Below, piece by piece: positions 18,673 through 39,393 of a stretch of 64,000 nt of DNA. How positions within the stretch are numbered: position 1 is the first letter of the stretch; each line of letters begins with the position of its first letter. The translations under genes were made by a program, and so were the position numbers. The notes below the pieces were generated by a model that had not been told where the DNA came from, did no database searches, and saw nothing but the letters and a program-made list of their open reading frames with translations. This stretch comes from a bacterium. GTDB lineage: Bacteria > Zhuqueibacterota > Zhuqueibacteria > Residuimicrobiales > Krinioviventaceae. Location: assembly GCA_963693055.1 (NCBI GenBank), contig OY843751.1:1408001-1472000 (forward strand), written 5' to 3'.

Positions 18673-19566
18673 ATGATTAAAGAAATAATTAGCTTTGTGC
18701 AGCGGAACAGTGTGCTTCCACCGGCATTTCAAACCATGTTGATAAGTGCATTAAATCTCGTTAAAGAAGAGGATGAAAGGCAAGAGCTTTGTGAACTGGC
18801 TTGTGCTGTCTCTAACAGATCCTGGCAGGATTGGATAGCCGATCGAAAGCCGGAAGATAATCGCAAAGAGCATGAGTGGATCGTGTTTTTGAATTTGATG
18901 CGTATTGCCCAATGTGAAAAATTATCACTGTCTGAAAAACGGATTGCAACCGCATTCGCATTTACACATGATTCCTATTTTATCAAGCGGATCATGGAAG
19001 CCACCATTGAAGAAATAAAAGAGGATGCAAAGCGATTACTCGAAATAAATCCTGAGCAATCCCTACAATTAATGGACAAGGCGGAAAAGCTGGAAAAAGA
19101 TAAAGCAGATCAACGCAACCAGCATATGAACAAAGGTGCTGAAAACGCCAGGATACTGCTTGATGACTTGACAGGATTTGAAACTGACCGAAAATTAATG
19201 GCACTTGAGGAAATTGATCGCTGTTGTGAAATTATTAGGAATCATGACAAGTGGAAAACCAGAGTGCCGTATCCGCTCGGGAGTGACAAACTAGCAGTCG
19301 TCTGTGTTGAAGCAGATGCCCTTTGGCCCATGCACCCATTAGGTGTATTGGCAGATATTGAACGTCCTGATGAAAATGGTAACACTCTGGATCCTGATGA
19401 TCCGAATAGCTGGCGACAAAAGGTTGATGAAAGTCTGGGAACGCTTTTACGTTATCAACAAAACTGGTATGGATTAGGGGAATCTTTTAAAGACGCTGAT
19501 TCCATATTCCGTACCCCTGAAGGTTTCCGGATATTTAATCAGTGGCGTGAGTTTTGGGGGATTTAA
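18673..19566 (+). CDS. Hypothetical protein, divergent HD-domain-like
   Basis: EHE...AFTHDS...QHMNKGA...IIRNHD...EADAL, matching the H/HD/H/H/D spacing of the HD superfamily. Confidence 0.6.
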   Translation: MIKEIISFVQRNSVLPPAFQTMLISALNLVKEEDERQELCELACAVSNRSWQDWIADRKPEDNRKEHEWIVFLNLMRIAQCEKLSLSEKRIATAFAFTHDSYFIKRIMEATIEEIKEDAKRLLEINPEQSLQLMDKAEKLEKDKADQRNQHMNKGAENARILLDDLTGFETDRKLMALEEIDRCCEIIRNHDKWKTRVPYPLGSDKLAVVCVEADALWPMHPLGVLADIERPDENGNTLDPDDPNSWRQKVDESLGTLLRYQQNWYGLGESFKDADSIFRTPEGFRIFNQWREFWGI

Positions 19567-19819: not shown

Positions 19820-20932
19820 TTGGGGCTAGATTTCAAAAATATAGACTTGGTGAATGATCACGTTAGAGACGTACAGGCACTTTTTGCTCTAAACCGGGTA
19901 ACGGATTCTATACAAATTATGGATGAATTGGGAAAAAGTGTCTTCCACAATGATTCGTTTATCAATTTGTTTGGCTATACAGTTGACCAGTTGAATGAAG
20001 CGGGTGGTTTGTATGCTATTCTTAAAGATCCTCAAATTGCAAATATTATTGTAAACGAGTTGGAAGTTAAGCCCGGTTGGATGGGTAAAGTTCAAATTTA
20101 TACATTAGCGGGCAACCTTGTTTCAGTTGTATTGAGGATTAACAAGGTTAAAACAGAAAATAATGAAAACCAGGGATACGTTTGTTTTTTTTCAAACAAT
20201 CTGTATCAGTATAATGTATATGCTGAAAAAGGCAAATATTACAGACACTTTGAAGAAGCAGAAAAGCTCGCCAGATTGGGGTATTTCTCATCAGTTATTT
20301 CTCATGAATTAAACAATCCTTTAAACATTATTAATACAAAGATTTATTTTTTGCAAAGAGAGCTGGAATCGATTTCTAAAGAATCTGAAGTGTGGGAACA
20401 TTTAACAAAGATCAAACAGCAACTCAAACGGTTGAAAAATCTAGCAAGCAGTGTTTTGCAATATGCCAGACATGATGTAAAAAAAGATTATCTTGTTAAT
20501 GTTAACCAGGTGATACAGCGTACTTTGGAATTCTTTGATGATCAGCTTACAGATGAAATAATTGTAATAAATAGATTAGATAAAGAAGTATCGCTTGTTC
20601 CTGCAGATTCAACGGGGTTAGAGATTGTATTTAAAAATTTGATATCTAATGCAATTGAAGCGTTGGAAGAATCCGGCACAATCACAATATCCACCCGAAA
20701 TGTAAATGAAAAATTTATTGAAATTACAATATCTGATTCCGGTAAAGGTATATCCGAAGATTTGCAGGAAAAGGTATTTGACCCCTTTTTCACCAGTAAA
20801 AGTAAAGAAGGGGGCTATGGATTGGGTCTAAGTATTTGTGAAAATATTATACATGAGCACAATGGAATGATTAATCTAAGAAGCAGGATTGGCAGAGGAA
20901 CAACGTTTGTCTTACTATTACCCCGTTTGTAA
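19820..20932 (+). CDS. Cytoplasmic PAS-domain sensor histidine kinase
   Basis: SHELNNPL H-box, NLISNA N-box, DSGKGI, FDPFFTSK, GYGLGL; PAS-like N-terminus; no TM helix seen. Confidence 0.92.
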   Translation: MGLDFKNIDLVNDHVRDVQALFALNRVTDSIQIMDELGKSVFHNDSFINLFGYTVDQLNEAGGLYAILKDPQIANIIVNELEVKPGWMGKVQIYTLAGNLVSVVLRINKVKTENNENQGYVCFFSNNLYQYNVYAEKGKYYRHFEEAEKLARLGYFSSVISHELNNPLNIINTKIYFLQRELESISKESEVWEHLTKIKQQLKRLKNLASSVLQYARHDVKKDYLVNVNQVIQRTLEFFDDQLTDEIIVINRLDKEVSLVPADSTGLEIVFKNLISNAIEALEESGTITISTRNVNEKFIEITISDSGKGISEDLQEKVFDPFFTSKSKEGGYGLGLSICENIIHEHNGMINLRSRIGRGTTFVLLLPRL

Positions 20933-20947
20933 TAAGGGATTTATTAT

Positions 20948-22324
20948 ATGTTCAAAGTACTGCTGGTTGATGACGAAATAGAAATTCTAAGAGATTACTC
21001 TCGTTTGATCATGGAAATGGGTTATCAATGCATTATTGCCAGAAATGGTGAAGAAGCGATCGAGTTGTTGAAACAAGAACATCCGGATATAATTTTGACG
21101 GATCAGAAAATGCCCAAAAAGGGTGGCATGTCTGTATTGCAGGAAGCATATGCGCTAGACAAGTCCATACCAGTGATTCTGATTACAGGGTATGGCTCTG
21201 TAAAAAATGCCGTGGATGCCATGAAGTTTGGTGCGTTTGATTATCTGCAAAAGCCATTTGATCCTGAAAAAATGCAGGAATTGCTGAAAAAGGCGGAAAA
21301 GTTTCGTAAAGAAAAATTAAATATTCCTATCGTTGAACTGGATGGGGATTACAGCAAGCCGCTTGAAGGGGTAATAGGGAAAAGCAAAGTTATTACCGAT
21401 ATTACAAAACGAGTATACAAAGTAGCGCCATCCATTTCTAATGTGTTAATCTATGGAGAATCTGGTACCGGCAAAGAACTTGTTGCCCGCAACATCCACT
21501 TGAACAGTAAACGTAAAGATCAACCCTTTATACCACTGGATTGCAGTGCGCTCCCGGCAAATCTGTTAGAAAGCGAAATGTTTGGCTATGAAAAAGGCGC
21601 GTTTACAGGGGCTGATAGGGAAAAACCCGGAGTTATTGAGCTTGCGCATAAAGGTACTTTGTTTCTGGATGAAATAACAGAACTGGATGCCAGCTTGCAA
21701 TCAAAGTTGTTACGTTTTATTCAGGAACGGCATTTCCGTAAAGTGGGAGGCCAGAAATTAGTCAAAGTTGATGTTCGTATTATTTCAGCAACCAATCGAA
21801 ATCCTGAAGAGGCAGTTAAAGAGAAATTGTTACGTAGTGATCTGTATTATAGATTAAATGTAGTTCCTTTCTTTATTCCTCCTTTGAGAGATCGAAGTGA
21901 AGATGTTTCCATACTCGTACAGCATTTCATTGAAAAGTTTAATCCTTCATTCGCACGCGAGATCAAGGGAGTGAGTTCAGATGCCATGTTGTGTTTAAAG
22001 CGATTCAACTGGCCGGGTAATGTTAGGGAGCTTCAGAATGTGATTGAACAAGCCATGTCTTTGGCAGATAAAAATATAATCGATTTGTCAGATTTGCCAC
22101 CCCATGTGCGGGAAAACCACAACAACTATGTAGATCAGGTCCATCATGGACAAACATTCAAAGATGCAAAAGAGAAAATATTAAAACAGTTTGGTAAAAG
22201 ATATTTTCAAGACCTGCTTGTTCAGTGTGATGGCAATATCTCAAAAACCGCGAAAATAGCAGGTATCAGTAGAAGTTCATTTTATCGTATACTTGATGAA
22301 TTTGATATAAAACTGCCCGATTAA
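20948..22324 (+). CDS. Sigma54-dependent response regulator (NtrC family)
   Basis: REC domain (VDDE, TDQKMP, KP), GESGTGKE, GAFTGA, LFLDEI, WPGNVREL, Fis-type HTH. Confidence 0.95.
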   Translation: MFKVLLVDDEIEILRDYSRLIMEMGYQCIIARNGEEAIELLKQEHPDIILTDQKMPKKGGMSVLQEAYALDKSIPVILITGYGSVKNAVDAMKFGAFDYLQKPFDPEKMQELLKKAEKFRKEKLNIPIVELDGDYSKPLEGVIGKSKVITDITKRVYKVAPSISNVLIYGESGTGKELVARNIHLNSKRKDQPFIPLDCSALPANLLESEMFGYEKGAFTGADREKPGVIELAHKGTLFLDEITELDASLQSKLLRFIQERHFRKVGGQKLVKVDVRIISATNRNPEEAVKEKLLRSDLYYRLNVVPFFIPPLRDRSEDVSILVQHFIEKFNPSFAREIKGVSSDAMLCLKRFNWPGNVRELQNVIEQAMSLADKNIIDLSDLPPHVRENHNNYVDQVHHGQTFKDAKEKILKQFGKRYFQDLLVQCDGNISKTAKIAGISRSSFYRILDEFDIKLPD

Positions 22325-22331
22325 TTGTATT

Positions 22332-22349
22332 TGTACTATTCTTGACACA
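22332..22349 (+). promoter_or_regulatory. Candidate enhancer-binding site (TGT-N12-ACA)
   Basis: TGTACTATTCTTGACACA; shares TGTACTA-N8-ACA with the reverse complements of the sites at 22978 and 23047. Confidence 0.45.
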
Positions 22350-22507
22350 CCCTTCCTATTACTTGTTTTTATTAGACATCCATTCATTTAGTCCTTTGTA
22401 TGCTCTGTTTTTGAATCAATTTTCGCATTTTTCGTAAATTATATCGAAATAGTGGTTTTTTAACTGTTTAATTATCAAAGTGTTATCTTGATTGCTACAG
22501 GTAATTG

Positions 22508-22522
22508 TGGCCCTTTTTTTGT
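22508..22522 (+). promoter_or_regulatory. Candidate sigma54 -24/-12 promoter
   Basis: TGGCCCTTTTTTTGT (GG-N10-GT, imperfect -12) about 35 bp before ATG 22556. Confidence 0.35.
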
Positions 22523-22555
22523 TTATTGTGTCATAATTCATCGTGGGAAAATATC

Positions 22556-22957
22556 ATGTGTTCACTTGCGTTAATTTCTTCAACAGATATTCAGTTGATA
22601 AACGAGATCAATTCTCTGTTATTAACCAGGAATTTTTCTGTACTGGTTGAGAAATCCAGAGTGTCTTTACTATACTTGATTCTAAAACATGATATTAATT
22701 TTATCCTCTTGGACATTGGTTATATGGATCCTGAAGCGATCAAAGTGCTTTACATAATTAAGCAGTTGCGTCCCAAATTGCCAGTTATTGTTTTAACCCC
22801 GGACAATTCGGTAGTTCACAATCAGGTATTAAAATCAATGGATGTGTTTTATGTTGGTTTTAAGCCATTGCATTATCAAAATTTTTCAATGATTATAGAT
22901 ACCTTGCTATTACTTCGTGGTAAAAGTACCGAATATTTATTAGACTCGATTGAATGA
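22556..22957 (+). CDS. Stand-alone, atypical receiver-domain protein
   Basis: FILLD, RPKLPVIVLT, GFKPL; the N-terminal acidic DD pair is absent. Confidence 0.7.
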   Translation: MCSLALISSTDIQLINEINSLLLTRNFSVLVEKSRVSLLYLILKHDINFILLDIGYMDPEAIKVLYIIKQLRPKLPVIVLTPDNSVVHNQVLKSMDVFYVGFKPLHYQNFSMIIDTLLLLRGKSTEYLLDSIE

Positions 22958-22977
22958 GCTATATAATTGACTTGTTT

Positions 22978-22995
22978 TGTACGTTTTGTAGTACA
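22978..22995. promoter_or_regulatory. Candidate enhancer-binding site (TGT-N12-ACA)
   Basis: TGTACGTTTTGTAGTACA, dyad-symmetric. Confidence 0.5.
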
Positions 22996-23046
22996 CTATC
23001 GTAATTGTAATAAAATTAAATTCTTAGCAGTTGTTTTGCTTTGTAA

Positions 23047-23064
23047 TGTCTTATTTTTAGTACA
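23047..23064. promoter_or_regulatory. Candidate enhancer-binding site (TGT-N12-ACA)
   Basis: TGTCTTATTTTTAGTACA. Confidence 0.5.
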
Positions 23065-23163
23065 ATTCAGGAAGAGTTCGAGGTTTTTTGCGAATTATTA
23101 GTTTTTTCGCTTCATAATTTACAAGTATTTAGCTCAAGAAATTGAAGCGATTAAAATCAAGTA

Positions 23164-23179
23164 TGGCATAATCATTGGA
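23164..23179 (+). promoter_or_regulatory. Candidate sigma54 promoter of the csg operon
   Basis: TGGCATAATCATTGGA versus consensus TGGCAC-N5-TTGCW, upstream of csgE. Confidence 0.55.
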
Positions 23180-23235
23180 TAAGAAGTGTATATAATTTCA
23201 AATAAGATTAAAATGCTTTTTGGGGCAATGCGGGC

Positions 23236-23841
23236 ATGGGACTAGTAGGTTTTGTGATTAACATTTACAATGGCAAGCAAAAGCTTGATAGGGTATTGAT
23301 TTGTATAATCATAATGTTAATGACAAATATTAATTTTGTTTTCTCTCAAGATCAAGATTCTACATCTGTGGATTCTGTAAAGCAAAGCAAGACCCGGGAT
23401 ATTTTGCAGAAATTGTTGAATCAGGCAACTCAGGAATCTATTCAGGATGTAATGGAAAAGCAAAAAGCCATTGCGAAAAAAGATAGTGTCAAAGACAGCT
23501 CAGATGAAGGTCTTGAAATTGATGGATTATTGATCAATGAAACCAAAACTAAAATTGGCCAGGACTTTTACGAATTCTTTTTCAATTTTTGGCAGGCACC
23601 TGAGAATGCTAAAGATTTTACATTGTTTGTGTCTGAAAGACCAACAGGAAACAGCGGAAGCTGGATCTGGGTAAATGTGAATGAAACCACAGTATTTCAA
23701 AACCGATTAACCCCCAAAGCCGACTTGATTGAGGAAACTGCACAAAGCGCTGTATCTATTGTCACAAATTATTTGATAAATCTGGATCAAAACCAAAGAC
23801 AGCTTGCTGGTGATGAAATGGCTGGGACTGGAATTTTTTAA
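23236..23841 (+). CDS. csgE: Curli assembly protein CsgE family
   Basis: EIDGLLINETKTKIGQDFYEFF..W...ERP...GSWIWV.VN...DEMAGTGIF; lies upstream of csgF and csgG; the true start may be slightly downstream. Confidence 0.85.
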   Translation: MGLVGFVINIYNGKQKLDRVLICIIIMLMTNINFVFSQDQDSTSVDSVKQSKTRDILQKLLNQATQESIQDVMEKQKAIAKKDSVKDSSDEGLEIDGLLINETKTKIGQDFYEFFFNFWQAPENAKDFTLFVSERPTGNSGSWIWVNVNETTVFQNRLTPKADLIEETAQSAVSIVTNYLINLDQNQRQLAGDEMAGTGIF

Positions 23842-23853
23842 GGAGATGGATGA

Positions 23854-24279
23854 ATGCCTCGGGTAGTTAAATGTTTTATACTTTTAATTTTATTTGCAAG
23901 CAGTGCATTTGCAACTGAATTGGTTTTTACGTTTGTTAATCCTGCTTTTGGCGGTTACTATTATAATGCTACATGGTTGTTGAATTCTGCACAACTTCAA
24001 GATGATACCGGTGAATCTTCAAGTTCTTATGCCAGCAGTTATTATTCTGGATCATCCCTGGAAGATTTTGAAGAAAGTATAAACCGTCAGATTCTGAGTC
24101 GTTTATCCAGCAAGCTTGTGACGCAAATATTTGGAGAAGAAGATCTGGAACCTGGTCACTATGAGATTGGTGATTTTCAGATTGATGTAACTCCATCAGA
24201 CAATGGGATACGTGTTGAAATAAATGATCCGGTTAATGGCGGCGAAACAGTTATAGAATTACCCTATTATGGTGACTGA
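23854..24279 (+). CDS. csgF: Curli assembly protein CsgF
   Basis: Signal peptide, then TELVFTFVNPAFGG..NATWLLNSAQLQ...F.ESINRQILSRLS. Confidence 0.92.
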   Translation: MPRVVKCFILLILFASSAFATELVFTFVNPAFGGYYYNATWLLNSAQLQDDTGESSSSYASSYYSGSSLEDFEESINRQILSRLSSKLVTQIFGEEDLEPGHYEIGDFQIDVTPSDNGIRVEINDPVNGGETVIELPYYGD

Positions 24280-25711
24280 GAGTAGTGTAAATATGAAAAT
24301 GAGACCTGTATTCTATACAATTTTTATAATTATTTTGATTTTTATGGGGTGTGCTCCCTATTTACAGCAAAGTAATCCTGTTCACACCACCCCGGCTACA
24401 TTGGGGTATACCACTGCAATACATAGCGATTTGCTTTCATTGCCTGAACCACGTGAAAAGATTGTTGTTGCGGTATACAAGTTTAGAGACCAGACCGGAC
24501 AGTACAAAGCTTCGTCAAGTGGAATGACATGGTCCACAGCTGTTACCCAGGGTGCTACATCTATGCTGCTAAAAGCTATGGAAGAATCTGGTTGGTTTAT
24601 TGTTGTGGAGCGGGAAGGCATTTCAAACCTGTTGAATGAAAGAAAGATCATTCGTTCTACCCGAGAGAATTATACGGACGACCAGGGACAGCAATTACCC
24701 CCATTACCTCCATTGCTTTATGCCGGAGTTACAATAGAGGGTGGAATAATTTCGTACGAAACCAATACATTAACCGGTGGTTTTGGCGCACGATATTTCG
24801 GCATAGGGGGTAATAACGAGTTTCGCAGTGATCAGGTAAATATTTATTTACGTTCGGTTGCAACAAAATCCGGTCGGATTTTAAATCAGGTAAATACTAC
24901 AAAGACAATATTATCTCAAGCTGTAGATTTTAGTGTATATAAATTTGTAAGAGAAAGCCGTTTGTTAGAGATTGAGAGCGGTTATTCTACCAACGAACCT
25001 CCACAAATGTGTGTGCTGGAAGCCATAGAAAAAGCCGTACTGGCTCTTGTTTGTGAAGGTATTGTATCAAAGAGCTGGGAGCTGAAAAATCCTGCGGATA
25101 TTAAATCCCCGGTAATACAGCGGTATCTTGAGGAAAAGCAAAACACAACAAAATATACGTTGCAGAATAGTATGCTCAACAGCAGATATGCAAAACCTCA
25201 ATATGGTTATGACAAGGGATTAGGGCTCACCTTGAATTTGGGAAGTCATTTATACCAGGGCGATTACGCGAATTCTGAAATTCGTCCAATGGGTGACGCT
25301 TCCATTTTGTGGGGTTTGCATCCCAATGTTTTGTTGGAATTAAATGGCAGTATAGGGCGGATTGCAAATAAAGATAATTTTTATACTGATTTGGGTTATT
25401 TGAATTTACAAAGCCGTTTTACATTTTGGTCTAATTCAAGATTTCGGCCATTCGGAATTTTGGGAGCGGGAGCAATGAATTTTAGAGCACGGGATAAAGC
25501 GGGTGTGTACATTCCACGTAAGAAACGGTTTAAAGGCTGGGAGCCTGTAATGATTTCTGGTTTAGGCGTTGAATATTTTATTAATCCCAGTTTGAGTATG
25601 AATCTAAGCTTTATAAATCAATATACCTTTACAGATTACCTGGATGGGGTTATCCATGGAAGTTATGATGACTATTTCTGGGGATTCAAGCTGGGGTTTA
25701 GTTATTATTAG
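24269..25711 (+). CDS. csgG: Curli secretion channel CsgG with a C-terminal outer-membrane beta-barrel domain
   Basis: Lipobox FMGC; LPEP..KIVVAVYKFRDQTGQYK, STAVTQGA, WFIVVEREG..NLLNERKIIR, EGGIISYE, YSTNEP; about 180 extra residues ending GFKLGFSYY. Start may be 24293 or 24299. Confidence 0.93.
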   Translation: MVTESSVNMKMRPVFYTIFIIILIFMGCAPYLQQSNPVHTTPATLGYTTAIHSDLLSLPEPREKIVVAVYKFRDQTGQYKASSSGMTWSTAVTQGATSMLLKAMEESGWFIVVEREGISNLLNERKIIRSTRENYTDDQGQQLPPLPPLLYAGVTIEGGIISYETNTLTGGFGARYFGIGGNNEFRSDQVNIYLRSVATKSGRILNQVNTTKTILSQAVDFSVYKFVRESRLLEIESGYSTNEPPQMCVLEAIEKAVLALVCEGIVSKSWELKNPADIKSPVIQRYLEEKQNTTKYTLQNSMLNSRYAKPQYGYDKGLGLTLNLGSHLYQGDYANSEIRPMGDASILWGLHPNVLLELNGSIGRIANKDNFYTDLGYLNLQSRFTFWSNSRFRPFGILGAGAMNFRARDKAGVYIPRKKRFKGWEPVMISGLGVEYFINPSLSMNLSFINQYTFTDYLDGVIHGSYDDYFWGFKLGFSYY

Positions 25712-25947
25712 GATCAGTTGAATACTGAAAGCTATCTGATTGGGATCTGGTAAGGGCAGATAGAATAAGTGAACATCACGCAGATGTAAAGAACAAACGT
25801 ATTTTGACAATTTAATTGCATCAACAGGCAATCATTAAATTATTACTCTCAAAGGATTCACTGTTGATACCTGTGGAAATGAACTGTTCATTTCCCAATG
25901 TAAACAATTGCTACATGAAAAAATGCAATGCAAAGCGTAGTTGAGGA

Positions 25948-27267
25948 GTGAGGATGAGAATTTTCATGTCTGTTCTACTGGCACTGTTGTTATTTTCAAG
26001 TGTTGGTATTGGTGCAGAAAACAGTGTGACTGCTAATGTAAACGGTAATTTCAATCAATCAACAGTTACGCAAGAGGGATCAGCAAACACAGCTTCCGTT
26101 GACCAAAACAGTGCTGCAACCAAATCTGCAGAAATGAATACTGTTGCTGTCACTCAAAAAAGTGATGATAATACCGCAACCGTAAATCAAGGATCTGTTT
26201 TAAAAACAAAATATGTAAAGAATACAACTGCAATTGTAACCCAGGCAGGCACAGGAGGGAACAGTGCAATCGTTAATCAGGGAACCCAAATCCATAATGG
26301 TTCAGTTGTATCTAATGCAACGGCAACAATCAATCAAAAAGGTGGCTCTGGAAACAGTGCAGAGATTAATCAAAAATCCTGGAATTCGAATGCATCTCCA
26401 ACCAAATGGAGCAAGCCGGATGATAATACCGCAACCATTATCCAGGATGGTTCAGGCAATATCGCAAGCTCAAAATCGGATGTGACCCGTGGATCAACAT
26501 TTATCCTTCAAGAAGGTAATGAAAATACGGCAACCCAAAAACAGGATGGTGAGCGGGATTTTAAAGCCAGAATTACTCAGGAAGGTAACCATAATACTGC
26601 AACACAATTTCAACATGGCGATGCAAATGCAAATGCGGAAATAATTCAAAAAGGCATGGGCAATACAGCATCGCAATGGCAGAAAAAAAATAATAATAGC
26701 TTGATCTATCAGGATGGTGTAGACAATACAGCAGACGTAGAACAAAAATCCGGCAGTAATATCAAAGCCAACATATATCAATATGGAAGTTATAATGGTT
26801 CTGTTGCTGATCCTGTTTTGATTGAACAAAAAGGTGGATCAGGGAATTCTGCTGTTATATATCAGGGTGATCCTGCTTTGAATGTTTATAACAATAGCGC
26901 AATGATCTATCAGGATGGAACATTGAATCTGGCAGCTATTCAGCAATATAGTAATGAGAATGAAGTCATTTTATTTCAAAATGGGGTAGGGAATGAACTC
27001 CATGCATTACAAAAAGGAGGTGATGGGAACATTATCAATCTGACCCAGGATGGTGGTGCAACAGCATCTATTACTCAGGATGGCAGTGGTAATGTCTTGA
27101 AAGGGGTAGGGGCAGGAAATACTATGGGACAATCATTAAATGGCAGCAGTCTTGATTTAACTCAAACAGGTACGGGAAACGTGTTAGAGTTGTTTCAAAC
27201 AAATGGAGCAGCTGCTCAGGTCCAACAAAATGGTATGACAAATAAAGTAATAATAATACAAAATTAA
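25948..27267 (+). CDS. Curlin-repeat protein 1 (CsgA/CsgB-like amyloid subunit)
   Basis: Signal peptide plus many N-x-A-x-I-x-Q-x-G repeats; likely ATG 25954. Confidence 0.88.
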   Translation: MRMRIFMSVLLALLLFSSVGIGAENSVTANVNGNFNQSTVTQEGSANTASVDQNSAATKSAEMNTVAVTQKSDDNTATVNQGSVLKTKYVKNTTAIVTQAGTGGNSAIVNQGTQIHNGSVVSNATATINQKGGSGNSAEINQKSWNSNASPTKWSKPDDNTATIIQDGSGNIASSKSDVTRGSTFILQEGNENTATQKQDGERDFKARITQEGNHNTATQFQHGDANANAEIIQKGMGNTASQWQKKNNNSLIYQDGVDNTADVEQKSGSNIKANIYQYGSYNGSVADPVLIEQKGGSGNSAVIYQGDPALNVYNNSAMIYQDGTLNLAAIQQYSNENEVILFQNGVGNELHALQKGGDGNIINLTQDGGATASITQDGSGNVLKGVGAGNTMGQSLNGSSLDLTQTGTGNVLELFQTNGAAAQVQQNGMTNKVIIIQN

Positions 27268-27279
27268 GGGAGTAGGGTA

Positions 27280-28761
27280 ATGAAAAGGTTGTTTGTTTTT
27301 TTGCTGGTATTATGTATGTCATCACTTTTGATGGCTGCAAGTAATACAATATCCACCACAATTAATGGTAATAGTAATGATGCAGATATTGATCAGGTGG
27401 GTGGCGACCAGTCCGCTACATTAACACAAACCGGAAATTCGAATGATGCGATTTTAGACCAGGTTACTGATGATGGTATGGCACAGTCTTTAACAGTTAC
27501 CCAGGAAGGGAATCGTAATCTGGCAAATGTTAACCAAAAAGAAGATGGGGCCGCAACAAATGGAACATCTTTGCCTGTTCAAACAGCCAGTGTATACCAA
27601 AAAGGTGATGGAAATTCAGCAAAAATAGATCAGGATGAGCTCGGTTCTGGTGATAAATATTTGAGCAGTGCTGCAATTCAACAGATTGGCAACAATAACG
27701 CTTCAGATCAAAGAACCTACGCTCCCGGCTCTAACAGTGGTCAACATGTTACGGGTATACAGGCTGGAAACGGTAACAGTTTGACGCAGAAAATTTTGGG
27801 TGGCTATACTAATAATTTTATAGCAACCCAAACAGGTAATGGAAATACAGTTGAGCAAATTATGCCTTCCGGCACACACAGCAAGGGAGTTGTGAATCAG
27901 GATGGTGATAGCAATATTGCTTCTCAACGTTTAACAGGAGCCAATAATGGTTATTCATCTGCTGGTGGTATTACAGTAACTCAAACAGGCAATGGTAACG
28001 AAGCAGATCAGGATGTTATAAGTACGGGAAGCTATACCAATAATAACGATGCTGATGTTGTTCAAAATGGTTCTAGTAATTATTCCAAGCAAGATGTGAA
28101 TGGTTGGCAGACAGATGTTGATGTTACCATTGATGGCAATAGCAACTCTACTAGCCAGTTTGTAGTTGGTACCGGAAACAAGAGTACAGTTAAGGTCATT
28201 GGAAATGGAAACAGTGTAATAACCAACCAGGCAAATGATAATAACACGGCTTCTGTTGAGATTAAAGACGAAGACGCGTATGTTGGTAATTCTAACGATG
28301 TTTTTATCAAACAAAACAATAACGGTAACAAAGCCAATGTAACCCTGCATGGATCTTATAACTCTGTAGATATTACCGAAGTTGATGGCAACGGTGATTG
28401 GCATGTTGTTAAAGTTATGAAAGGTAATAGCAATGATATTGATATATCAGCCAAAACCGGTGGAAATAATCGTGGTGAGTGGATATTGAAAAATGCCAGC
28501 GGTAATACTGTAAAGGAAGTGCAGAATGGAAGTGATAACATTGCCGGTGGTGAGGTTAAAGGTAGTGGTAATGATATCAATATTGTACAAAAAGGTGTTG
28601 ATAACCTGGTTGGTACTGATCCCAATAATTGGAATGTAAATGATGGTGTTGTAATTGACGGTAACAGTAACACAGTTGATATTGATCAATTAACGAATTC
28701 AAACCAGGCTGTAGTTAATATTATTGGTGCAAGTAACCAGTTTAAATCAGTTCAACAATAA
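27280..28761 (+). CDS. Curlin-repeat protein 2
   Basis: Signal peptide; Q-x-G-N-x-N repeats throughout 493 aa. Confidence 0.88.
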   Translation: MKRLFVFLLVLCMSSLLMAASNTISTTINGNSNDADIDQVGGDQSATLTQTGNSNDAILDQVTDDGMAQSLTVTQEGNRNLANVNQKEDGAATNGTSLPVQTASVYQKGDGNSAKIDQDELGSGDKYLSSAAIQQIGNNNASDQRTYAPGSNSGQHVTGIQAGNGNSLTQKILGGYTNNFIATQTGNGNTVEQIMPSGTHSKGVVNQDGDSNIASQRLTGANNGYSSAGGITVTQTGNGNEADQDVISTGSYTNNNDADVVQNGSSNYSKQDVNGWQTDVDVTIDGNSNSTSQFVVGTGNKSTVKVIGNGNSVITNQANDNNTASVEIKDEDAYVGNSNDVFIKQNNNGNKANVTLHGSYNSVDITEVDGNGDWHVVKVMKGNSNDIDISAKTGGNNRGEWILKNASGNTVKEVQNGSDNIAGGEVKGSGNDINIVQKGVDNLVGTDPNNWNVNDGVVIDGNSNTVDIDQLTNSNQAVVNIIGASNQFKSVQQ

Positions 28762-28796
28762 GTTATTGTTGATGCTTTAATTGAAATCGGAATACT

Positions 28797-28821
28797 TTTG
28801 GCAGAAAAATTTTCTGCCAAA
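28797..28821 (+). terminator. Intergenic stem-loop
   Basis: TTTGGCAGAAAA-A-TTTTCTGCCAAA. Confidence 0.5.
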
Positions 28822-28906
28822 TTTACATAAAATTTGAAAATCAATAAATAATAATAGGGTATTGATTTCAAACATAAATAACAAAATCTCAAGAAAGGGG
28901 TAACAA

Positions 28907-30010
28907 ATGAAAAAGTTAGTAGTTGTGTTAATGCTGGTTGCAATGGTAGGATTTGCATTTGCGGCAAATGAAGCTACTGTAACAGAAGATGGTGACAATA
29001 ATACCGCGACCGTAACTCAACGCGGTAACTTGAACGATGGTACAGTTGAACAGATAGGTGATCAACATACTGCAACTATCAATCAAGCAACTGCAAGCAA
29101 TGATGCATTTATTGGACAGTTGAATGGTAACAAGAATGAAGGTGCAATAAGGCAGCAGGGTAGTGAAAATGCGGCATATATTACCCAAGGTATGGCCGTA
29201 GGTTATTCAGATTCATATTCTCCGGCTTCTGCAAGTAACAATTTATCAACTGTTGACCAGGTTGGTAATGGTAATACCACTTCTGCAAAACAATTTGGTG
29301 ATAAAAATGTTACAGATGTAAACCAGAACGGTCATCGGAATACAGCCTATGCATATCAGGGTTGGACTTATAATGGTTGGGGCGAAACCTGGACAACTTC
29401 CAGATTGCAGAGTTTCAATAGTGATGTGACAATTTCTCAGGCAACTAATGACAATAATGGAGCAGTATGGCAGTATGGTGGCAACAGGAACAATGTTACT
29501 ATAAATCAACGTGTTGGCAATGCAAATACTGCAAGTGTCTCTCAAGGTTTCATTTATAATGATGGCGCTTATGATTACCCACATCCAGTTTATAACACTA
29601 AAGACAATGATGCAATTGTAACCCAGGCAGGTGCAAGTAATACAGCCAAATTATTTCAATTAGGTGATAATAATACTTTTACATTATCTCAAACAGGTAA
29701 TAGCAACTCTGTAGGTTATGGTGCTGCATTAGCAAGCCTTGTTGAAAAAAGGAATGCTTACTTTGATCAATCTGGTGATAACAATGTGTTTACTGGAACA
29801 CAAACAGGTGGTGCTACAGTTGAATATGAAAGTTATCAGGTTGGTGATAATAACACAATAAGTCTTTATCAGGGAACAAGTGATGTAACTTTGATCCAAC
29901 AAGATGGTAATTGGAATACTGCAACCAATACTCAACTGGGTGGCGGCCAGGTTTCCAGTATTGCACAAACAGGTAATGGAAATAATGCATCTGTAAATCA
30001 AGGAATGTAA
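28907..30010 (+). CDS. Curlin-repeat protein 3
   Basis: Signal peptide MKKLVVVLMLVAMVGFAFA; curlin repeats; close paralog of the gene at 30108. Confidence 0.88.
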   Translation: MKKLVVVLMLVAMVGFAFAANEATVTEDGDNNTATVTQRGNLNDGTVEQIGDQHTATINQATASNDAFIGQLNGNKNEGAIRQQGSENAAYITQGMAVGYSDSYSPASASNNLSTVDQVGNGNTTSAKQFGDKNVTDVNQNGHRNTAYAYQGWTYNGWGETWTTSRLQSFNSDVTISQATNDNNGAVWQYGGNRNNVTINQRVGNANTASVSQGFIYNDGAYDYPHPVYNTKDNDAIVTQAGASNTAKLFQLGDNNTFTLSQTGNSNSVGYGAALASLVEKRNAYFDQSGDNNVFTGTQTGGATVEYESYQVGDNNTISLYQGTSDVTLIQQDGNWNTATNTQLGGGQVSSIAQTGNGNNASVNQGM

Positions 30011-30017
30011 GTTATAA

Positions 30018-30047
30018 CTGTACCCAAATATTTCAATTTGGGTGCAG
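30018..30047 (+). terminator. Intergenic stem-loop
   Basis: CTGTACCCAAAT-ATTTCA-ATTTGGGTGCAG. Confidence 0.5.
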
Positions 30048-30107
30048 AATTTTATAATATGTTTCGGTAAACATATAATAAATAATCATCATTGAAAGGG
30101 GCAACAA

Positions 30108-31214
30108 ATGAAAAAGTTAGTCGTTATTTTAATGCTGGTTGCAATGGTAGGATTTGCATTTGCAGCAAATGAAGCAACCGTAACAGAAGATGGAAACAAT
30201 AATTCCGCAACAGTAACCCAACGTGGTAATTTGAATGCCGGTACAGTTGATCAGAATGGTGATCAACATGTTGCTACACTTAGTCAATCCACTGCCAGTA
30301 ATGAAGCATTTATCGGTCAATTGAATGGTAATAAAAATGAAGCACATGTAAACCAACAGGGTAGAGAAAATGCAGCAGATGTAAACCAAGGCATGATCGA
30401 AGGCTTGGATCCTACGTTTGCATCTAAAAATGTTTCTGGTAGCAATAACTTGACAAATTTGACCCAGGTTGGTAATGAAAACTATAATCAAACTGTACAA
30501 ACTGGTGATAAAAATGAAACAAATGTAAGTCAGGCCGGGCATCGTAATATTGCTTATTCATATCAGGGCTGGCCCTATGCACAATGGGGAGAAACATGGA
30601 CAACTTCCAGATTACAGAGCTACAATAGTGATGTAAGAATAAGCCAGGCAACAAATGACAATTATGGAGCAGTATGGCAGTATGGTGGCAACAGAAATAG
30701 TGCCACTGTTACACAACGAGTTGGTAATGCAAACTATGCAAGTATTGCACAAGGCTTTATCTATACTGATGGTGCTTATGATTTTGATCATCCAGTATAT
30801 GATACCAAAGACAATGATGCCGTTGTAACTCAGGCAGGTGCAAGTAACTCTACTCGTTTGTTTCAGTTGGGTGACAATAATAGTTTCACATTGACTCAAA
30901 ATGGTAATTCAAATACTGTTGGTGGGCGTGATCTTTCAGGTCTTGTTAATAAACGTAATGGTTATTTTGATCAATCAGGTGACAATAACTTGTTTTCAGG
31001 TTCTCAAAATGGTGGAGCAACTGTAGAAATTGCTAGTTATCAGAATGGTGATAATAATACAATTACCCTCTATCAAGGTACTAATGATGTAACAACATTA
31101 CAGCAAACAGGAAACTGGAATACTGCAACCAATACTCAATTGGGTGGTGGCCAGGTATCTAGTATTGCACAAACGGGTAATGGAAATACAGCATCTGTAA
31201 ATCAGGGACTGTAA
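30108..31214 (+). CDS. Curlin-repeat protein 4 (tandem duplicate of protein 3)
   Basis: Collinear with 28907-30010, with long identical blocks. Confidence 0.88.
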   Translation: MKKLVVILMLVAMVGFAFAANEATVTEDGNNNSATVTQRGNLNAGTVDQNGDQHVATLSQSTASNEAFIGQLNGNKNEAHVNQQGRENAADVNQGMIEGLDPTFASKNVSGSNNLTNLTQVGNENYNQTVQTGDKNETNVSQAGHRNIAYSYQGWPYAQWGETWTTSRLQSYNSDVRISQATNDNYGAVWQYGGNRNSATVTQRVGNANYASIAQGFIYTDGAYDFDHPVYDTKDNDAVVTQAGASNSTRLFQLGDNNSFTLTQNGNSNTVGGRDLSGLVNKRNGYFDQSGDNNLFSGSQNGGATVEIASYQNGDNNTITLYQGTNDVTTLQQTGNWNTATNTQLGGGQVSSIAQTGNGNTASVNQGL

Positions 31215-31222
31215 TCTTATAT

Positions 31223-31254
31223 TTTGCCTGGAGTATGATGCTACTCCAGGCAAA
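31223..31254 (+). terminator. Intergenic stem-loop
   Basis: TTTGCCTGGAGTA-TGATGC-TACTCCAGGCAAA; a second hairpin TTTGAATTCCAAA...TTTGGAATTCAAA follows at about 31263-31305. Confidence 0.6.
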
Positions 31255-31347
31255 TAAATTTGTTTGAATTCCAAAACTCATAGACACAGGGCTTTGGAAT
31301 TCAAATATTTTGTTGAAATGGAATTACTTAATGCTAGTGGAGTTTAT

Positions 31348-32328
31348 ATGAAAAAGCACCTGATTCAACTTTTGTTATTATTATTTGCAGGCTTGTTATT
31401 AGCAGCTGGTAATAGTGCTGATGTTGATCAAACGAACGATTATAATGATGCGTCTGTAGTTCAAACCGGTAATAATAATATTGCTGATGTAGATCAAGTT
31501 AGTACCGCTACAACCAGCAGTGAGGGTAACATTGCTGAAATAACTCAAGCCAGCAGTAATAATGATTTCACTGTTGACCAAACCGGCAAATCTAACGTTG
31601 CAATTATGAGTAATCAAGTGCGGAATGGAGCTGTCTCAAAAGTTTATCAGAATGGTGTTGATAACAGAGCTGAGGCAGAGCTGAAATCAAGTGGTTTCTT
31701 GACAGGAAAAAGCTTTACATCATTTCAGGAACAAATTGGAAATCATAATGTAACTTCCAGAATCAGAATGGATGGAATTAATAGCAGTACATACAATTTT
31801 CAATTTGGTGACTATAACCACTCTCACACTTCGATTTTGGGAAACAATAATTGGATATTGGTTACCCAGGGTGTGAGTTTTGCTGCGGCAGATCACAACT
31901 ATGTTTATAGTGAAACCGAAGGTAACAATAATGATGTTATTGTCGATCAGGTAGGCGATTTTAACAGAACGATTATTGTGCAGGAATTCCAATCCAATAC
32001 GAGTATTGTTGACTTGGATCAAACAAATGGTTCGAATGCTACCATTAAGCAGAACTCTCTCAAAATGGACAAGAATTATCAAAATGTTGTAAAGTTGAAC
32101 CAAACCAATAGTTCTTTTGCTACTATTAACCAAGGTGGTAGTAATGGCGGTGGTTATAATGTAGTTAAAGGATTGGGCACTGCAGAATTTGGACAATCGT
32201 TAAATGGAAGTATTTTGGACATTGATCAAATTGGCAATCATAATGTTGTAAGCTTGTATCAGGATGATGGTATTGCTACTGTAAGTCAAACTGGTAATAG
32301 TAATGATGTAATTATACATCAATATTGA
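31348..32328 (+). CDS. Curlin-repeat protein 5
   Basis: GGAG RBS, MKKHLIQLLLLLFAG signal peptide, curlin repeats; C-terminus similar to protein 1. Confidence 0.85.
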   Translation: MKKHLIQLLLLLFAGLLLAAGNSADVDQTNDYNDASVVQTGNNNIADVDQVSTATTSSEGNIAEITQASSNNDFTVDQTGKSNVAIMSNQVRNGAVSKVYQNGVDNRAEAELKSSGFLTGKSFTSFQEQIGNHNVTSRIRMDGINSSTYNFQFGDYNHSHTSILGNNNWILVTQGVSFAAADHNYVYSETEGNNNDVIVDQVGDFNRTIIVQEFQSNTSIVDLDQTNGSNATIKQNSLKMDKNYQNVVKLNQTNSSFATINQGGSNGGGYNVVKGLGTAEFGQSLNGSILDIDQIGNHNVVSLYQDDGIATVSQTGNSNDVIIHQY

Positions 32329-32415
32329 TTGCAAATTAATCAAGATTTCTTTTTTAAAGATTGTTTACCATGTGAAATTGGATTATTCTTGGCAAGTAAA
32401 ACCGTAAGGGTAAAA

Positions 32416-32949
32416 ATGAAATTGCCAAAATTTATAATTATTCTGGTTTTTGCATTATCGTTTCATCTTTATGCACAATATGATGTTAAAGTTGAACAGG
32501 ATGGAAATAATAATGAAATCCTAGTTAACCAGTCCGGATTGTTCAACAAGATCAATGTTTTACAACGAGCTGACAATTCCCGTTCCGTAATCAACCAAGA
32601 CGGAACGGGTAATGTCATTACTCAAATCAATGAGAATTCTGATTCGGGTGCAATAACCAAGCAAAAAGTTGTTCAGGATGGTGATTATAATTATTCAAGA
32701 ATCGATATTGATGGAGCTCAAACGCTTTCAGATTATAATACTACTATTTCTCAGGAATATGGTAATGGCAATGAAGCACAAATTACATCAATTGGGATGA
32801 AAAATGGTAGTAATTCAGAAAACGATTTACTGATTCAACAACATGGATCAAATAATTATGGTGATTTACAGGTTTATGGTATGGGGTTGGGAGGTAGTAT
32901 TATACAAACAGGTGATAATATGTCCGTAACAGTTATTCGTACAAATTAA
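32416..32949 (+). CDS. Short curlin-repeat protein 6 (possible CsgB-like nucleator)
   Basis: Signal peptide; VEQDGNNNEILVNQSG, INQDGTGN, IQQHGSNN, IIQTGDNMSVTVIR. Confidence 0.8.
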   Translation: MKLPKFIIILVFALSFHLYAQYDVKVEQDGNNNEILVNQSGLFNKINVLQRADNSRSVINQDGTGNVITQINENSDSGAITKQKVVQDGDYNYSRIDIDGAQTLSDYNTTISQEYGNGNEAQITSIGMKNGSNSENDLLIQQHGSNNYGDLQVYGMGLGGSIIQTGDNMSVTVIRTN

Positions 32950-33084
32950 AATAGAATAATTCCAGCATATTTCTCAATATTATTGCCTGATAGCTTAATC
33001 CATGTCATTCACACACTATTATCTTGCCAAAATAAAAGAGTATGACAGAGTTTATGAACAGGTTTTACTAACTCTAATGAATAG

Positions 33085-34185
33085 ATGAGAAATACAATTG
33101 GTAAATACATATATTATTTCATGCTTTTATCTTTTCCCTTTTCTTCAACAACTGCGCAGGAAATTTTAACTGTAATTCCCAATACAATTCAATTGGATCT
33201 GGTACCCGGCTATTTAGAAGTGGTTGATGTTAAAGTAATGAATACCTTTGACAAGGATTTGCAAATAAAAGTTGATTATGACACTACCTGGGTAGATGTT
33301 TCTCCATTCGAGTTCAGTCTTTTACCTGGTAATATGACCCAATTGCTGGTCTTTTTTTTCATTCCAACAGGTCAAACACCGGTTTCGAATGGTTCAATTA
33401 TTTTTAAAAATAAAAACAATAGCCAGGTTTTAAACAAAATTGATCTAATTCTAAACTCAACATCAACTAAATCTCAAAATATTGATAACCAAAATAATTA
33501 CGAACCGCCGAACACAAATAATGATAATTATATTAATCCCCAAATACTTGAGCTGCAGCAACAGATCCAGAAAGATCAGCTTGTGATTTCTGATCTGGAA
33601 AGCCAATTGAACAAAAAAGATTTAGAAATTGCCAAGTTGTTAGATGCAAATGAATCAAACTCGGATGAATTTGTACTTGCTTCATTTCCCAAGGTTGATG
33701 AAAATCAATCAGTGGGCTTTGATGCACTCAATTCTTTATACAATGTATTGCTTCGTGAGATGAATTCTGATCTAAAAAATAATAAAGCAGTACTTGACTT
33801 TTCCCAAAATAAAATATATTTTTCTATCTCAGGAGAGATCGCATTTATTTCTGGTGGAAATTATTTGAGATTGGAAGGGGAAAGGGTGTTGAATCGATTT
33901 TCAAACGTGTTGAAAAATTTTTCTTATAAAGATTTCAAGATTATGGTTGTTGGGCATACGGATTCGGTACAATATAAAGACGGTATGCGGCAGGAAACAT
34001 TTGGCAACTGGGAGCTATCTGCGCTTAGATCTGTCAAAGTAATCAAGCATTTACAGAAAATGTCCGATTATTCTGGTACTCATTTACTTGCATCCTGCCA
34101 GGCATCATATTCACCCATTGCTCCCAATAATACCAAAAATGGAAGGATTGCAAATCGGAGAATTGAAATTATTATTTCCTATTAA
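33085..34185 (+). CDS. OmpA/MotB-family peptidoglycan-binding protein with N-terminal Ig-like domain and coiled coil
   Basis: VVGHTDS, NWELSALRS, PIAPNNTKNGRIANRRIEIII; signal peptide. Confidence 0.85.
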   Translation: MRNTIGKYIYYFMLLSFPFSSTTAQEILTVIPNTIQLDLVPGYLEVVDVKVMNTFDKDLQIKVDYDTTWVDVSPFEFSLLPGNMTQLLVFFFIPTGQTPVSNGSIIFKNKNNSQVLNKIDLILNSTSTKSQNIDNQNNYEPPNTNNDNYINPQILELQQQIQKDQLVISDLESQLNKKDLEIAKLLDANESNSDEFVLASFPKVDENQSVGFDALNSLYNVLLREMNSDLKNNKAVLDFSQNKIYFSISGEIAFISGGNYLRLEGERVLNRFSNVLKNFSYKDFKIMVVGHTDSVQYKDGMRQETFGNWELSALRSVKVIKHLQKMSDYSGTHLLASCQASYSPIAPNNTKNGRIANRRIEIIISY

Positions 34186-34216
34186 ATATATTGTGACTAT
34201 CAAACTCTGCCATTAA

Positions 34217-35719
34217 ATGAGGTACGAAATGAAACTGAATGCAATGAAATGGATAATGCCTGTTGTGATAGCTCTGCTGGTTTTGATCAGTTGTACAGAA
34301 GATCCTATTGATCCTGTAACTACCGGAAATATAAGTGGGCAGGTAATACATTCTGAAACATTAGAACCCATATCCGGGGCAAATATTACTACAACACCTG
34401 CATCTATAGCAGTAAATACAGATATTTCTGGTAATTATCAAATTGAAGGTGTGGAACAAGGAACGATAACTGTCAAGGCTACCAAAACCGGATATAAATC
34501 TTCATCCATTAGTATACTGGTTGAACCCAGTCAGAATACAATAGCCAATATACAAATGTCTGAATCCACACAGACAAATGATGCACCAAATTCACCTTCT
34601 AGTCCGGTACCTGACAATGGTGCAAGTGATCAATCAACAAGCATTACTTTGACATGGCGTGCGAGTGATCCCAATTCTGATGATACGTTGTATTACGATG
34701 TATATCTGGGCAATTCAGGCCCTATGCATTTAATCTCAGAAAATCAAACAGATACAACCCTGGGATTAACAGATTTGAGTTATGGACACACATACCACTG
34801 GCAGGTTGTAGCAAGAGACCAGGAGGGATTAGAGACAAACAGCCCGGCATGGAGTTTTACTACGTCTGATTTCCCCCGGTATTCCATTGTTTTTGCATCA
34901 AACGTTGATGGTAACTATAATATTTTTACCGGTTCTGGTGATGGTGCGGATTCAATACGACTCACGATTGATCCCGGTAGAGATTGGTATCCCCGTTTTA
35001 GCCCGAATCGTGAAAAAATAGCGTTTACTTCGAATCGGAATGTTGAATCTCAGTTGTTTATTATGAATTATGATGGAAGCGATCTTGAACAAATCTCGAG
35101 TATACCTGTTGTGGGGTATAATAATTATGGAACAGGATTTTGTTGGAACCCAACTGGGCATAAGCTGTTATATGCCAACTATGAAAAATTATACAGGATT
35201 GATTCCGATGGAGATCAGTTAACACAAATTGCTACAGCACCCGAAAATCGTAATTTTTACGAAATGGATTGGTCGCCCGTTGGTGGAAAAATAGCGGCAA
35301 TTACTATGGGAAGTAATGTATATGATACTGAATTGTATATAATGAATGAAAATGGATCCAATATGACCTTGTTGCTTGATAATGTAACCGGTCGTATGGG
35401 GCATCCAACATTTTCGCCCGGTGGTGATCGGATTGCATATTATTATGATATCTCTGGTTACGAATCTGGGAATAACAGAATGCTTGACGCATGTATCCAT
35501 ATTATTGACATAGCAATGACTGATACCACAAACTTGTCAACTAATAAACCTGTTGGAACGAATGATATTGATCCTGTATGGACTCCTGATGGTGCACATA
35601 TCATTTTTACTAATGTTCCCAATGATAATTCTGGAAATCCATCGGTATGGATTATGAATACCAGCGGAGAGTCTCGTGAAAAATTGTTTGATAACGCACA
35701 AATGCCGGATTGGAGATAA
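34217..35719 (+). CDS. Lipoprotein with carboxypeptidase-regulatory-like, FN3-like and TolB-like (PD40) beta-propeller domains
   Basis: Lipobox LISC; GNISGQV..PISGA..TD.SGNY; TLTW.ASDP..YDVYLG..YHWQVVARD; PRFSPN, WNPTG, WSPVG, FSPGG, WTPDG, MPDWR. Confidence 0.87.
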   Translation: MRYEMKLNAMKWIMPVVIALLVLISCTEDPIDPVTTGNISGQVIHSETLEPISGANITTTPASIAVNTDISGNYQIEGVEQGTITVKATKTGYKSSSISILVEPSQNTIANIQMSESTQTNDAPNSPSSPVPDNGASDQSTSITLTWRASDPNSDDTLYYDVYLGNSGPMHLISENQTDTTLGLTDLSYGHTYHWQVVARDQEGLETNSPAWSFTTSDFPRYSIVFASNVDGNYNIFTGSGDGADSIRLTIDPGRDWYPRFSPNREKIAFTSNRNVESQLFIMNYDGSDLEQISSIPVVGYNNYGTGFCWNPTGHKLLYANYEKLYRIDSDGDQLTQIATAPENRNFYEMDWSPVGGKIAAITMGSNVYDTELYIMNENGSNMTLLLDNVTGRMGHPTFSPGGDRIAYYYDISGYESGNNRMLDACIHIIDIAMTDTTNLSTNKPVGTNDIDPVWTPDGAHIIFTNVPNDNSGNPSVWIMNTSGESREKLFDNAQMPDWR

Positions 35720-35748
35720 TCTCAGGTAATACTGATATGAAAATTAAG

Positions 35749-35778
35749 AAAAGGCCTCTTTAAAAAAGAGGCCTTTTT
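35749..35778 (+). terminator. Rho-independent (bidirectional) terminator ending the curli locus
   Basis: AAAAGGCCTCTTT...AAAGAGGCCTTTTT. Confidence 0.8.
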
Positions 35779-39335: not shown

Positions 39336-39393
39336 TTAAAAAATCTTGCAATGCACTATTCTTGATACTTGAATGTCCATGTTGCAAGCCTTT

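Follow-up and report, generated by a model that had tools for sequence, protein, structure and literature searches.

A curli-type gene cluster with a barrel-fused CsgG and a conserved lipoprotein in the FCB lineage KSB1

The stretch of DNA analysed here (64,000 nucleotides of contig OY843751.1, assembly GCA_963693055.1; "the window") originates from an uncultured bacterium of KSB1, an FCB lineage, in agreement with the host affiliation proposed in an earlier, sequence-only reading, and contains a curli (type VIII secretion) locus. The assignment to KSB1 follows from three genomes of this class with proteins that NCBI labels accordingly. Nearly all knowledge of how curli are made comes from Escherichia coli. 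The open reading frame (ORF) map of the window contains a co-oriented block on the plus strand, spanning positions 19820–35719, in which all genes listed by that reading, from a kinase gene to a terminator and including six curlin genes, are intact. For comparison, 167 KSB1 genomes, among them the host genome (G000) and a congener (G085), and 401 genomes of the phylum Bacteroidota were analysed.

Curli genes and curlins of the block

The csgE (23236–23841, start uncertain) and csgF (23854–24279) genes adjoin csgG (24269–25711), and their products matched PF10627, PF10614 and PF03783 with 91.5, 132.6 and 206 bits, respectively. CsgE, CsgF, CsgG and all six curlins (PF07012, Curlin_rpt) scored above the Pfam cut-offs, so that the check with hidden Markov models (HMMs) bore out the assignment to curli. 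CsgE carries no CsgH-like N-terminal fusion, as judged from a negative CsgH HMM search. Ratios of nonsynonymous to synonymous substitution rates (dN/dS) relative to G085 ranged from 0.01 to 0.20 in all 11 genes tested, with 0.03 for the C-terminal barrel of CsgG alone, indicating purifying selection; the comparison did not extend to curlins 2–4, whose counterparts in the congener cannot be paired unambiguously.

Downstream of csgG follow, with lengths counted from the likely ATG, the genes of curlin 1 (25948–27267, 437 aa), curlin 2 (27280–28761, 493 aa, with a variable central block), curlin 3 (28907–30010, 367 aa), curlin 4 (30108–31214, 368 aa; a duplicate of curlin 3 at 74% identity), curlin 5 (31348–32328, ORF from 31264, 326 aa) and curlin 6 (32416–32949, ORF from 32329, 177 aa). 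All six have signal peptides (assigned by eye), mature parts without cysteine and with about 14% asparagine, and the N-x-ψ-x-ψ-x-Q kernel with loop insertions. When the sequence of curlin 3 was compared with the PDB, the sole match was the Pontibacter curlin 8C50 (E 1e-16). The G085 counterparts of curlins 1, 5 and 6 are 87–95% identical (95% for curlin 1), while the central curlins share at most 50% identity with those of G085 and number three in G000 as opposed to five in G085; the array therefore turns over fast. Hairpins are located 3' of curlins 2, 3 and 4 (28797–28821, 30018–30047 and 31223–31254, respectively); they may have a role in transcript stoichiometry, in that they would raise the mRNA share of these three curlins. 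An orphan seventh curlin of 182 aa is encoded away from the locus (G000:C1:5706409-5706957; L015:6410-6958); a sigma-54 site close to the consensus precedes it by about 49 nt.

Curlin 6 has a degenerate last repeat and ends with Q-x-G-x-x-M-x-hydrophobic, and the short curlins of many Bacteroidota loci end alike. According to the accessible text of PMC10192328, the last repeat of CsgB (R5) has a bulky residue where asparagine is expected. Because curlin 6 is short and its last repeat recalls this description, it is a candidate nucleator; a profile of 24 short curlins failed to single it out, and it is its length, its position and its last repeat that point to a CsgB-like role.

The barrel of CsgG and the lipoprotein partner

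A profile built from nine CsgG homologues matched the E. coli CsgG structures with E 7e-86, over positions 10–278 only. The remaining C-terminal domain (residues ~302–472, encoded at about 25193–25708) was modelled as eight strands with a predicted local distance difference test score (pLDDT) of about 85, and its fold matched the NspA, OprF, OmpA and OmpW barrels with Z scores of 17–19.5 (best match: Z 19.5, root mean square deviation 2.2, 158 residues aligned). With its antiparallel strands and an aromatic C-terminal strand, the domain belongs to the class of 8-stranded outer membrane barrels, and its OMP_b-brl match is below the cut-off (E 3.5e-4). Model and fold search thus supported the different pore architecture that had been proposed from the sequence. 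The lipobox cysteine of CsgG is invariant in 33 sequences. A word-index search with the barrel alone returned three close relatives only and is uninformative on the size of the family.

The last gene of the block (34217–35719) codes for a lipoprotein consisting of a CarboxypepD_reg domain (CRD), an Fn3 domain and a β-propeller (CarboxypepD_reg, fn3 and PD40 above cut-off). It had been called TolB-like; the lipoprotein nature stood, but the architecture is CRD-Fn3-propeller, and the score against the TolB model TIGR02800 (83 bits) is far below its cut-off of 343. Databases assign only generic domain names to the protein, and the conserved core common to its homologues comprises the first ~95 residues.

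CsgF was found in six of the 167 KSB1 genomes and in 31 of the 401 Bacteroidota genomes, 25 of the latter (~6%) with strong matches, and all 25 strong loci were read. Every complete csgG in these loci (24/24; one is cut by a contig end) carries the barrel, and the lipoprotein is present in all 23 loci not cut short, in 11 cases in full length and in 12 as a short form without propeller. Gene order varies between loci, yet the lipoprotein is retained. In KSB1, the lipoprotein occurs at E ≤ 1e-40 in exactly the six CsgF-positive genomes. The genome-wide search of the Bacteroidota sample, in which three candidates per genome were scored and most short forms were missed, detected it at E ≤ 1e-30 in 12 genomes, all csgF-positive and with the two genes adjacent. 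Two of the six loci with weak CsgF matches were read as well (L050 and L051); they encode a 300-aa CsgG without barrel, lack the lipoprotein and form the outgroup in the CsgG tree. In this tree, the KSB1 sequences nest among those of Bacteroidota; four of the five form a clade (100/99), and that of G139 groups with two sequences of the Bacteroidota sample.

The barrel fusion and the lipoprotein hence are the normal FCB architecture and standard in the sampled Bacteroidota curli loci. The possibility that the locus is unique to the host genome was ruled out by relatives with the same architecture in both KSB1 and Bacteroidota, and the proposal of an undescribed system specific to this locus had to be abandoned, also with regard to its curlins. 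As far as the text of PMC3521004 was accessible, Bacteroidetes curli systems have as many as six csgA/B copies that differ from one another, with subunits of up to 529 aa, and neither csgC nor csgD, and the size of CsgG is unaffected by curlin size (Dueholm 2012); the accessible part of PMC10192328 mentions up to 30 copies per genome, and that of PMC12822426 describes curli as widespread in Bacteroidota, with CsgA/B plus CsgEFG listed first of the five commonest compositions. The number and size of the curlins and the missing regulators are therefore not new. The barrel fusion and the lipoprotein are undescribed in the accessible text of the literature found, including PMC13721041, PMC12611786 and bioRxiv 2022.02.28.482343; subscription papers, figures and supplements lay outside this search, so that a prior mention is possible. 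No paper linking KSB1 with curli was found.

Some related genes were observed in other loci. In the Bacteroidota-sample locus L033 (4809-6266), a canonical barrel-TSP3-OmpA gene lies directly after the lipoprotein gene, and its barrel resembles the CsgG-fused one. Tandem paralogous CRD lipoproteins border the position of the curli locus in G082 and G081 (L007:1-5075 and L081:4570-7744). G085 contains a second, partial csgG (L024:10037-10450), 89–96% identical, which adjoins an integrase-like gene and is separated from the main locus by about 33 kb.

Additions in KSB1: sigma-54 cassette and OmpA-like protein

The block starts with genes encoding a soluble PAS histidine kinase (19820–20932; PAS_9, HisKA and HATPase_c above cut-off; dN/dS 0.03), an NtrC-type sigma-54 activator with REC-AAA-HTH organization (20948–22324; Sigma54_activat, Response_reg and HTH_8 above cut-off; GAFTGA loop intact; dN/dS 0.01) and a stand-alone receiver (22556–22957, ORF from 22505, likely ATG at 22556). 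The Response_reg match of the latter (E 2e-4, 21.9 bits) is below the cut-off of 30.2 bits; its Asp and Lys-Pro residues are invariant across four aligned homologues. Between receiver and csgE, a site resembling the −24/−12 consensus of sigma-54 promoters, TGGCA-N6-TTGG with a non-consensus G at −12, was detected at 23164–23179 on the plus strand; it is the only such match in the window and is kept in G085. The host genome contains rpoN, and the strict motif occurs upstream of 52 of 1945 host genes, as compared to 2.2 in shuffles and 9 in antisense orientation. The three regulatory genes precede csgE in G000, G085 and G121 and not in G082 and G139, i.e., in three of five assessable genomes (the locus of G020 could not be assessed for the cassette). 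Sigma-54-like sites are located before csgE in G000, G085 and G082, before the receiver gene in G121, and before the orphan curlin; outside KSB1, they were present upstream of csgE in 2 of 32 cases, which is background level. Taken together, the gene and site content suggests that the curli block is likely under sigma-54 control instead of that of the E. coli regulator. No LuxR-type gene was found in the block by Pfam scans (a genome-wide csgD search was not made), and no sigma-54-driven curli operon was found in the literature. In one Bacteroidota genome (G344; L047:12952-16526), a NarL/LuxR-type two-component set and two lone receivers precede csgE, putting another type of regulator in this place; at L026:10674, a LuxR-like gene follows the lipoprotein gene.

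The cassette is not confined to curli. In a context survey of 13 further activator loci and of G081:C20, activator-receiver cassettes were found to head exopolysaccharide genes (G118, G130), a Tad pilus cluster (G081) and Ig/secretin-type clusters (G081, G091), the remaining loci having unrelated genes downstream or ending at a contig edge. The claim of a different regulation thus stood as far as the likely sigma-54 control is concerned, but not as a curli-specific trait.

The gene at 33085–34185 had been annotated as OmpA/MotB and regarded as a cell-wall anchor. Its product comprises a signal peptide, an Ig domain, a coiled coil and OmpA_C (OmpA Pfam above cut-off), with no transmembrane anchor or lipobox seen. 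It is not a flagellar MotB: signal peptide and Ig domain take the place of the transmembrane plug, the MotB models scored below cut-off, and there is no motA in the block. The G-H-x-D and R motifs of OmpA_C, which we take to mediate peptidoglycan binding, are invariant in six sequences of this protein, and a function as peptidoglycan anchor is likely. The full-length protein was found in five of the 167 KSB1 genomes, in four curli loci and in one secretin cluster of G081, while 49 other KSB1 genomes matched the query in the OmpA domain only. As it occurs in curli loci (four of the five assessable in KSB1) and beside a secretin, it appears to be a portable anchor that connects outer membrane channels to the wall. 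For the same reason, and in view of its absence from G139 and from the Bacteroidota clusters, it was rejected as a core curli part; the anchor claim holds in this restricted sense. In L060 (G081:C20, 3476-13219) and L087 (G091:C81), genes for a sigma-54 activator and a receiver are followed by genes for secreted Ig-like proteins, one of them with a weak WxLIP match, a secretin and the Ig-coil-OmpA protein. Judged from their gene content, these clusters may encode an unnamed secretin-associated surface structure which shares the cassette with the curli locus. Kinase, activator, receiver and OmpA-like gene appear to be portable KSB1 add-ons that also flank non-curli surface operons.

The block ends with a terminator-like hairpin (35749–35777, 13-bp stem, T-runs on both sides, strand unassigned). 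Scans of the window for sigma-70 promoters (93 versus 76.5 in shuffles) and terminators (11 versus 11.3) were both near shuffle level, and the composition of the window gave no clear island signal. Neighbouring genes encode a 297-aa protein without Pfam or NCBIfam match (18673–19566, 82% identical in G085), two secreted proteins with C-terminal tails of the type IX secretion system (T9SS)/FlgD type (37725–41379; an FG-GAP repeat protein and a protein of 661 aa) and, by eye only, an IS4-family-like transposase (41608–42774).

Interpretation and alternatives

Compared to E. coli curli (csgBAC, csgDEFG), the locus shares CsgE, CsgF, the pore domain of CsgG and the curlin kernel; it differs in being one co-oriented block with six long curlins, a barrel on CsgG, additional lipoprotein and OmpA-like genes and likely sigma-54 control, and in lacking CsgC and an adjacent CsgD. 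Bacteroidota curli loci (PMC3521004; Pontibacter korlensis R15.5, PDB 8C50, PMC10192328) resemble it, in the published text accessible to us, in csgEFG, several long dissimilar curlins and the absence of csgC and csgD, and, in the present analysis, in the barrel-fused CsgG, the lipoprotein and one short curlin. KSB1 adds the regulatory cassette and the Ig-coil-OmpA gene, and has neither CsgH nor CsgH-CsgE fusions. We consider it reasonably probable that the block is an intact curli cluster of this KSB1/Bacteroidota type, with barrel-fused CsgG and lipoprotein, which likely exports the curlins into a surface amyloid, likely under sigma-54 control.

In such a system, phosphoryl groups would pass from the soluble PAS kinase to the NtrC-type activator, the lone receiver serving as a putative sink or relay, and the activator would open the promoter before csgE. 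By analogy with the family, curlins would be exported by Sec, gated by CsgE and passed unfolded through the CsgG ring; CsgF and the short curlin 6 would nucleate, and the long curlins would stack as β-solenoids, perhaps in heteropolymeric fibres as the earlier reading proposed. Each CsgG subunit is predicted to add a satellite barrel around the pore. The weakest step concerns the lipoprotein: flipped to the surface, it would function as an adaptor or tether of the pore, its membrane-proximal CRD domain probably engaging the barrel. In some KSB1, the Ig-coil-OmpA protein may tie the channel to peptidoglycan.

Surface exposure of the lipoprotein is suggested by its N-terminus. At positions +2 to +6 after the lipid-modified cysteine, the lipoproteins have a mean of 1.73 acidic residues, with at least one in 33 of 33 sequences; in CsgG, the mean is 0.11, with none in 34 of 38. 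According to the accessible part of PMC5080379, an acidic stretch following this cysteine is a surface export signal in Bacteroidota lipoproteins. Undescribed in the literature found, the lipoprotein is a candidate new curli component, with a likely role in assembly as an extra part.

Several observations weigh against this interpretation. The single-sequence model of curlin 3, one of the six, was poor (pLDDT 39.7), albeit all-beta, and gave no fold match at E ≤ 0.001. Evidence for the export signal comes from Bacteroidota and not from KSB1, the propeller is missing from 12 of 23 Bacteroidota lipoproteins, and co-occurrence among related genomes may result from inheritance of a single operon and need not mean that the proteins interact. 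The Ig-coil-OmpA gene is not universal. The sigma-54-like site of the window deviates from the consensus at −12, the loose motif is found upstream of 5.3% of the genes anyway, and G139 has neither such a site nor the cassette. The closest orthologues of the activator (68–70%, in G081 and G082) are accompanied by a kinase but do not adjoin curli genes. Altogether, the support consists of gene content, selection and conservation.

Alternatively, the lipoprotein of the same curli system could be periplasmic and form, together with the OmpA-like protein, a split PorE- or TolB/Pal-like scaffold linking the barrel-fused pore to the wall. PorE (PG1058) of the T9SS is, in the accessible text of PMC5053529, a lipoprotein of the periplasm that combines propeller, CRD and OmpA_C, and these domain types, which in part recall TolB/Pal of the Tol-Pal system as well, are here encoded by two adjacent genes; besides, the CsgG-fused barrel weakly matches PorG (E 7e-8) and Bacteroidota OmpA barrels (25% over 116 aa). 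However, domain order differs, tetratricopeptide repeats are lacking, and OmpA_C resides on a separate, non-lipidated protein. Since the acidic signal occurs in all 33 lipoproteins, most lipoprotein-bearing loci lack the OmpA gene and the propeller is dispensable, we regard such a scaffold as unlikely.

Even less probable, in our opinion, is a scenario in which barrel and lipoprotein are mere passengers within an ancient operon that serves another function, for instance in adhesion or in maintaining the envelope, and the two-component genes upstream control other targets. The curli-free contexts of the nearest activator orthologues and the many CRD lipoproteins of these genomes would fit. On the other hand, the G081 activator abuts a convergent lipoprotein array resembling that next to the curli block of G082, as would be expected after a deletion in an ancestor with the linked arrangement. 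The persistence of the lipoprotein in shuffled gene orders also contradicts a passenger role, as does the lack of a lipoprotein orthologue in 161 CsgF-negative KSB1 genomes and in the 376 Bacteroidota genomes that lack a strong CsgF match, few candidates per genome having been scored.

The absence of CsgC, CsgH and CsgD, also claimed initially, stood for CsgC and CsgH but is no novelty, the lack of csgC and csgD having been published, as cited above. In the host genome, a Pfam search revealed no csgC (the E. coli positive control was detected), and neither a Pfam search without positive control nor a custom HMM from ten Bacteroidota CsgH-like domains revealed CsgH; Pfam searches of five KSB1 curli genomes were likewise negative for both. 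Within Bacteroidota, CsgE has an N-terminal CsgH/CsgC-like fusion in seven loci (L018, L029, L031, L035, L038, L043 and L052), and stand-alone CsgH-like genes occur in L028, L033 and L046. That the lipoprotein or the Ig domain of the OmpA-like protein, both of which contribute β-sandwich domains, replaces CsgC/CsgH as periplasmic amyloid inhibitor is very improbable, because these domains are acidic (isoelectric point (pI) 4.1–4.3; curlins 4.2–4.8), CsgC/H acting through positive charge with a pI about 2 units above that of the curlin (accessible text of PMC4838910), because lipoprotein and CsgH-like genes coexist in ten Bacteroidota loci, and because the Ig domain, tried as a CsgH-like candidate and rejected, matched neither CsgH nor CsgC models.

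Returning to a curli cluster with a surface lipoprotein, a more far-reaching and distinctly tentative proposal is that of a second type VIII architecture in the FCB group. A CsgG ring with satellite barrels would dock a dedicated lipoprotein on the surface; as a ninth Csg component, the latter would anchor or nucleate fibres of fast-changing curlins. In KSB1, this system would be combined with a sigma-54 cassette and a wall anchor that pili, secretin and capsule operons use as well.

Profile surveys for CsgA–H would not report the two additional parts carried by the 25 Bacteroidota and six KSB1 genomes. Their occurrence raises a question of assembly: CsgG of E. coli reportedly assembles without BamA, while an 8-stranded barrel normally needs the β-barrel assembly machinery (BAM). 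Both parts can be studied in cultured bacteria, for example Reichenbachiella faecimaris or Siphonobacter. CsgG is a scaffold for sequencing nanopores, and natural barrel-decorated variants are of practical interest in this respect. The value of the finding lies less in the window itself than in the phylum-wide pattern that it exposed.

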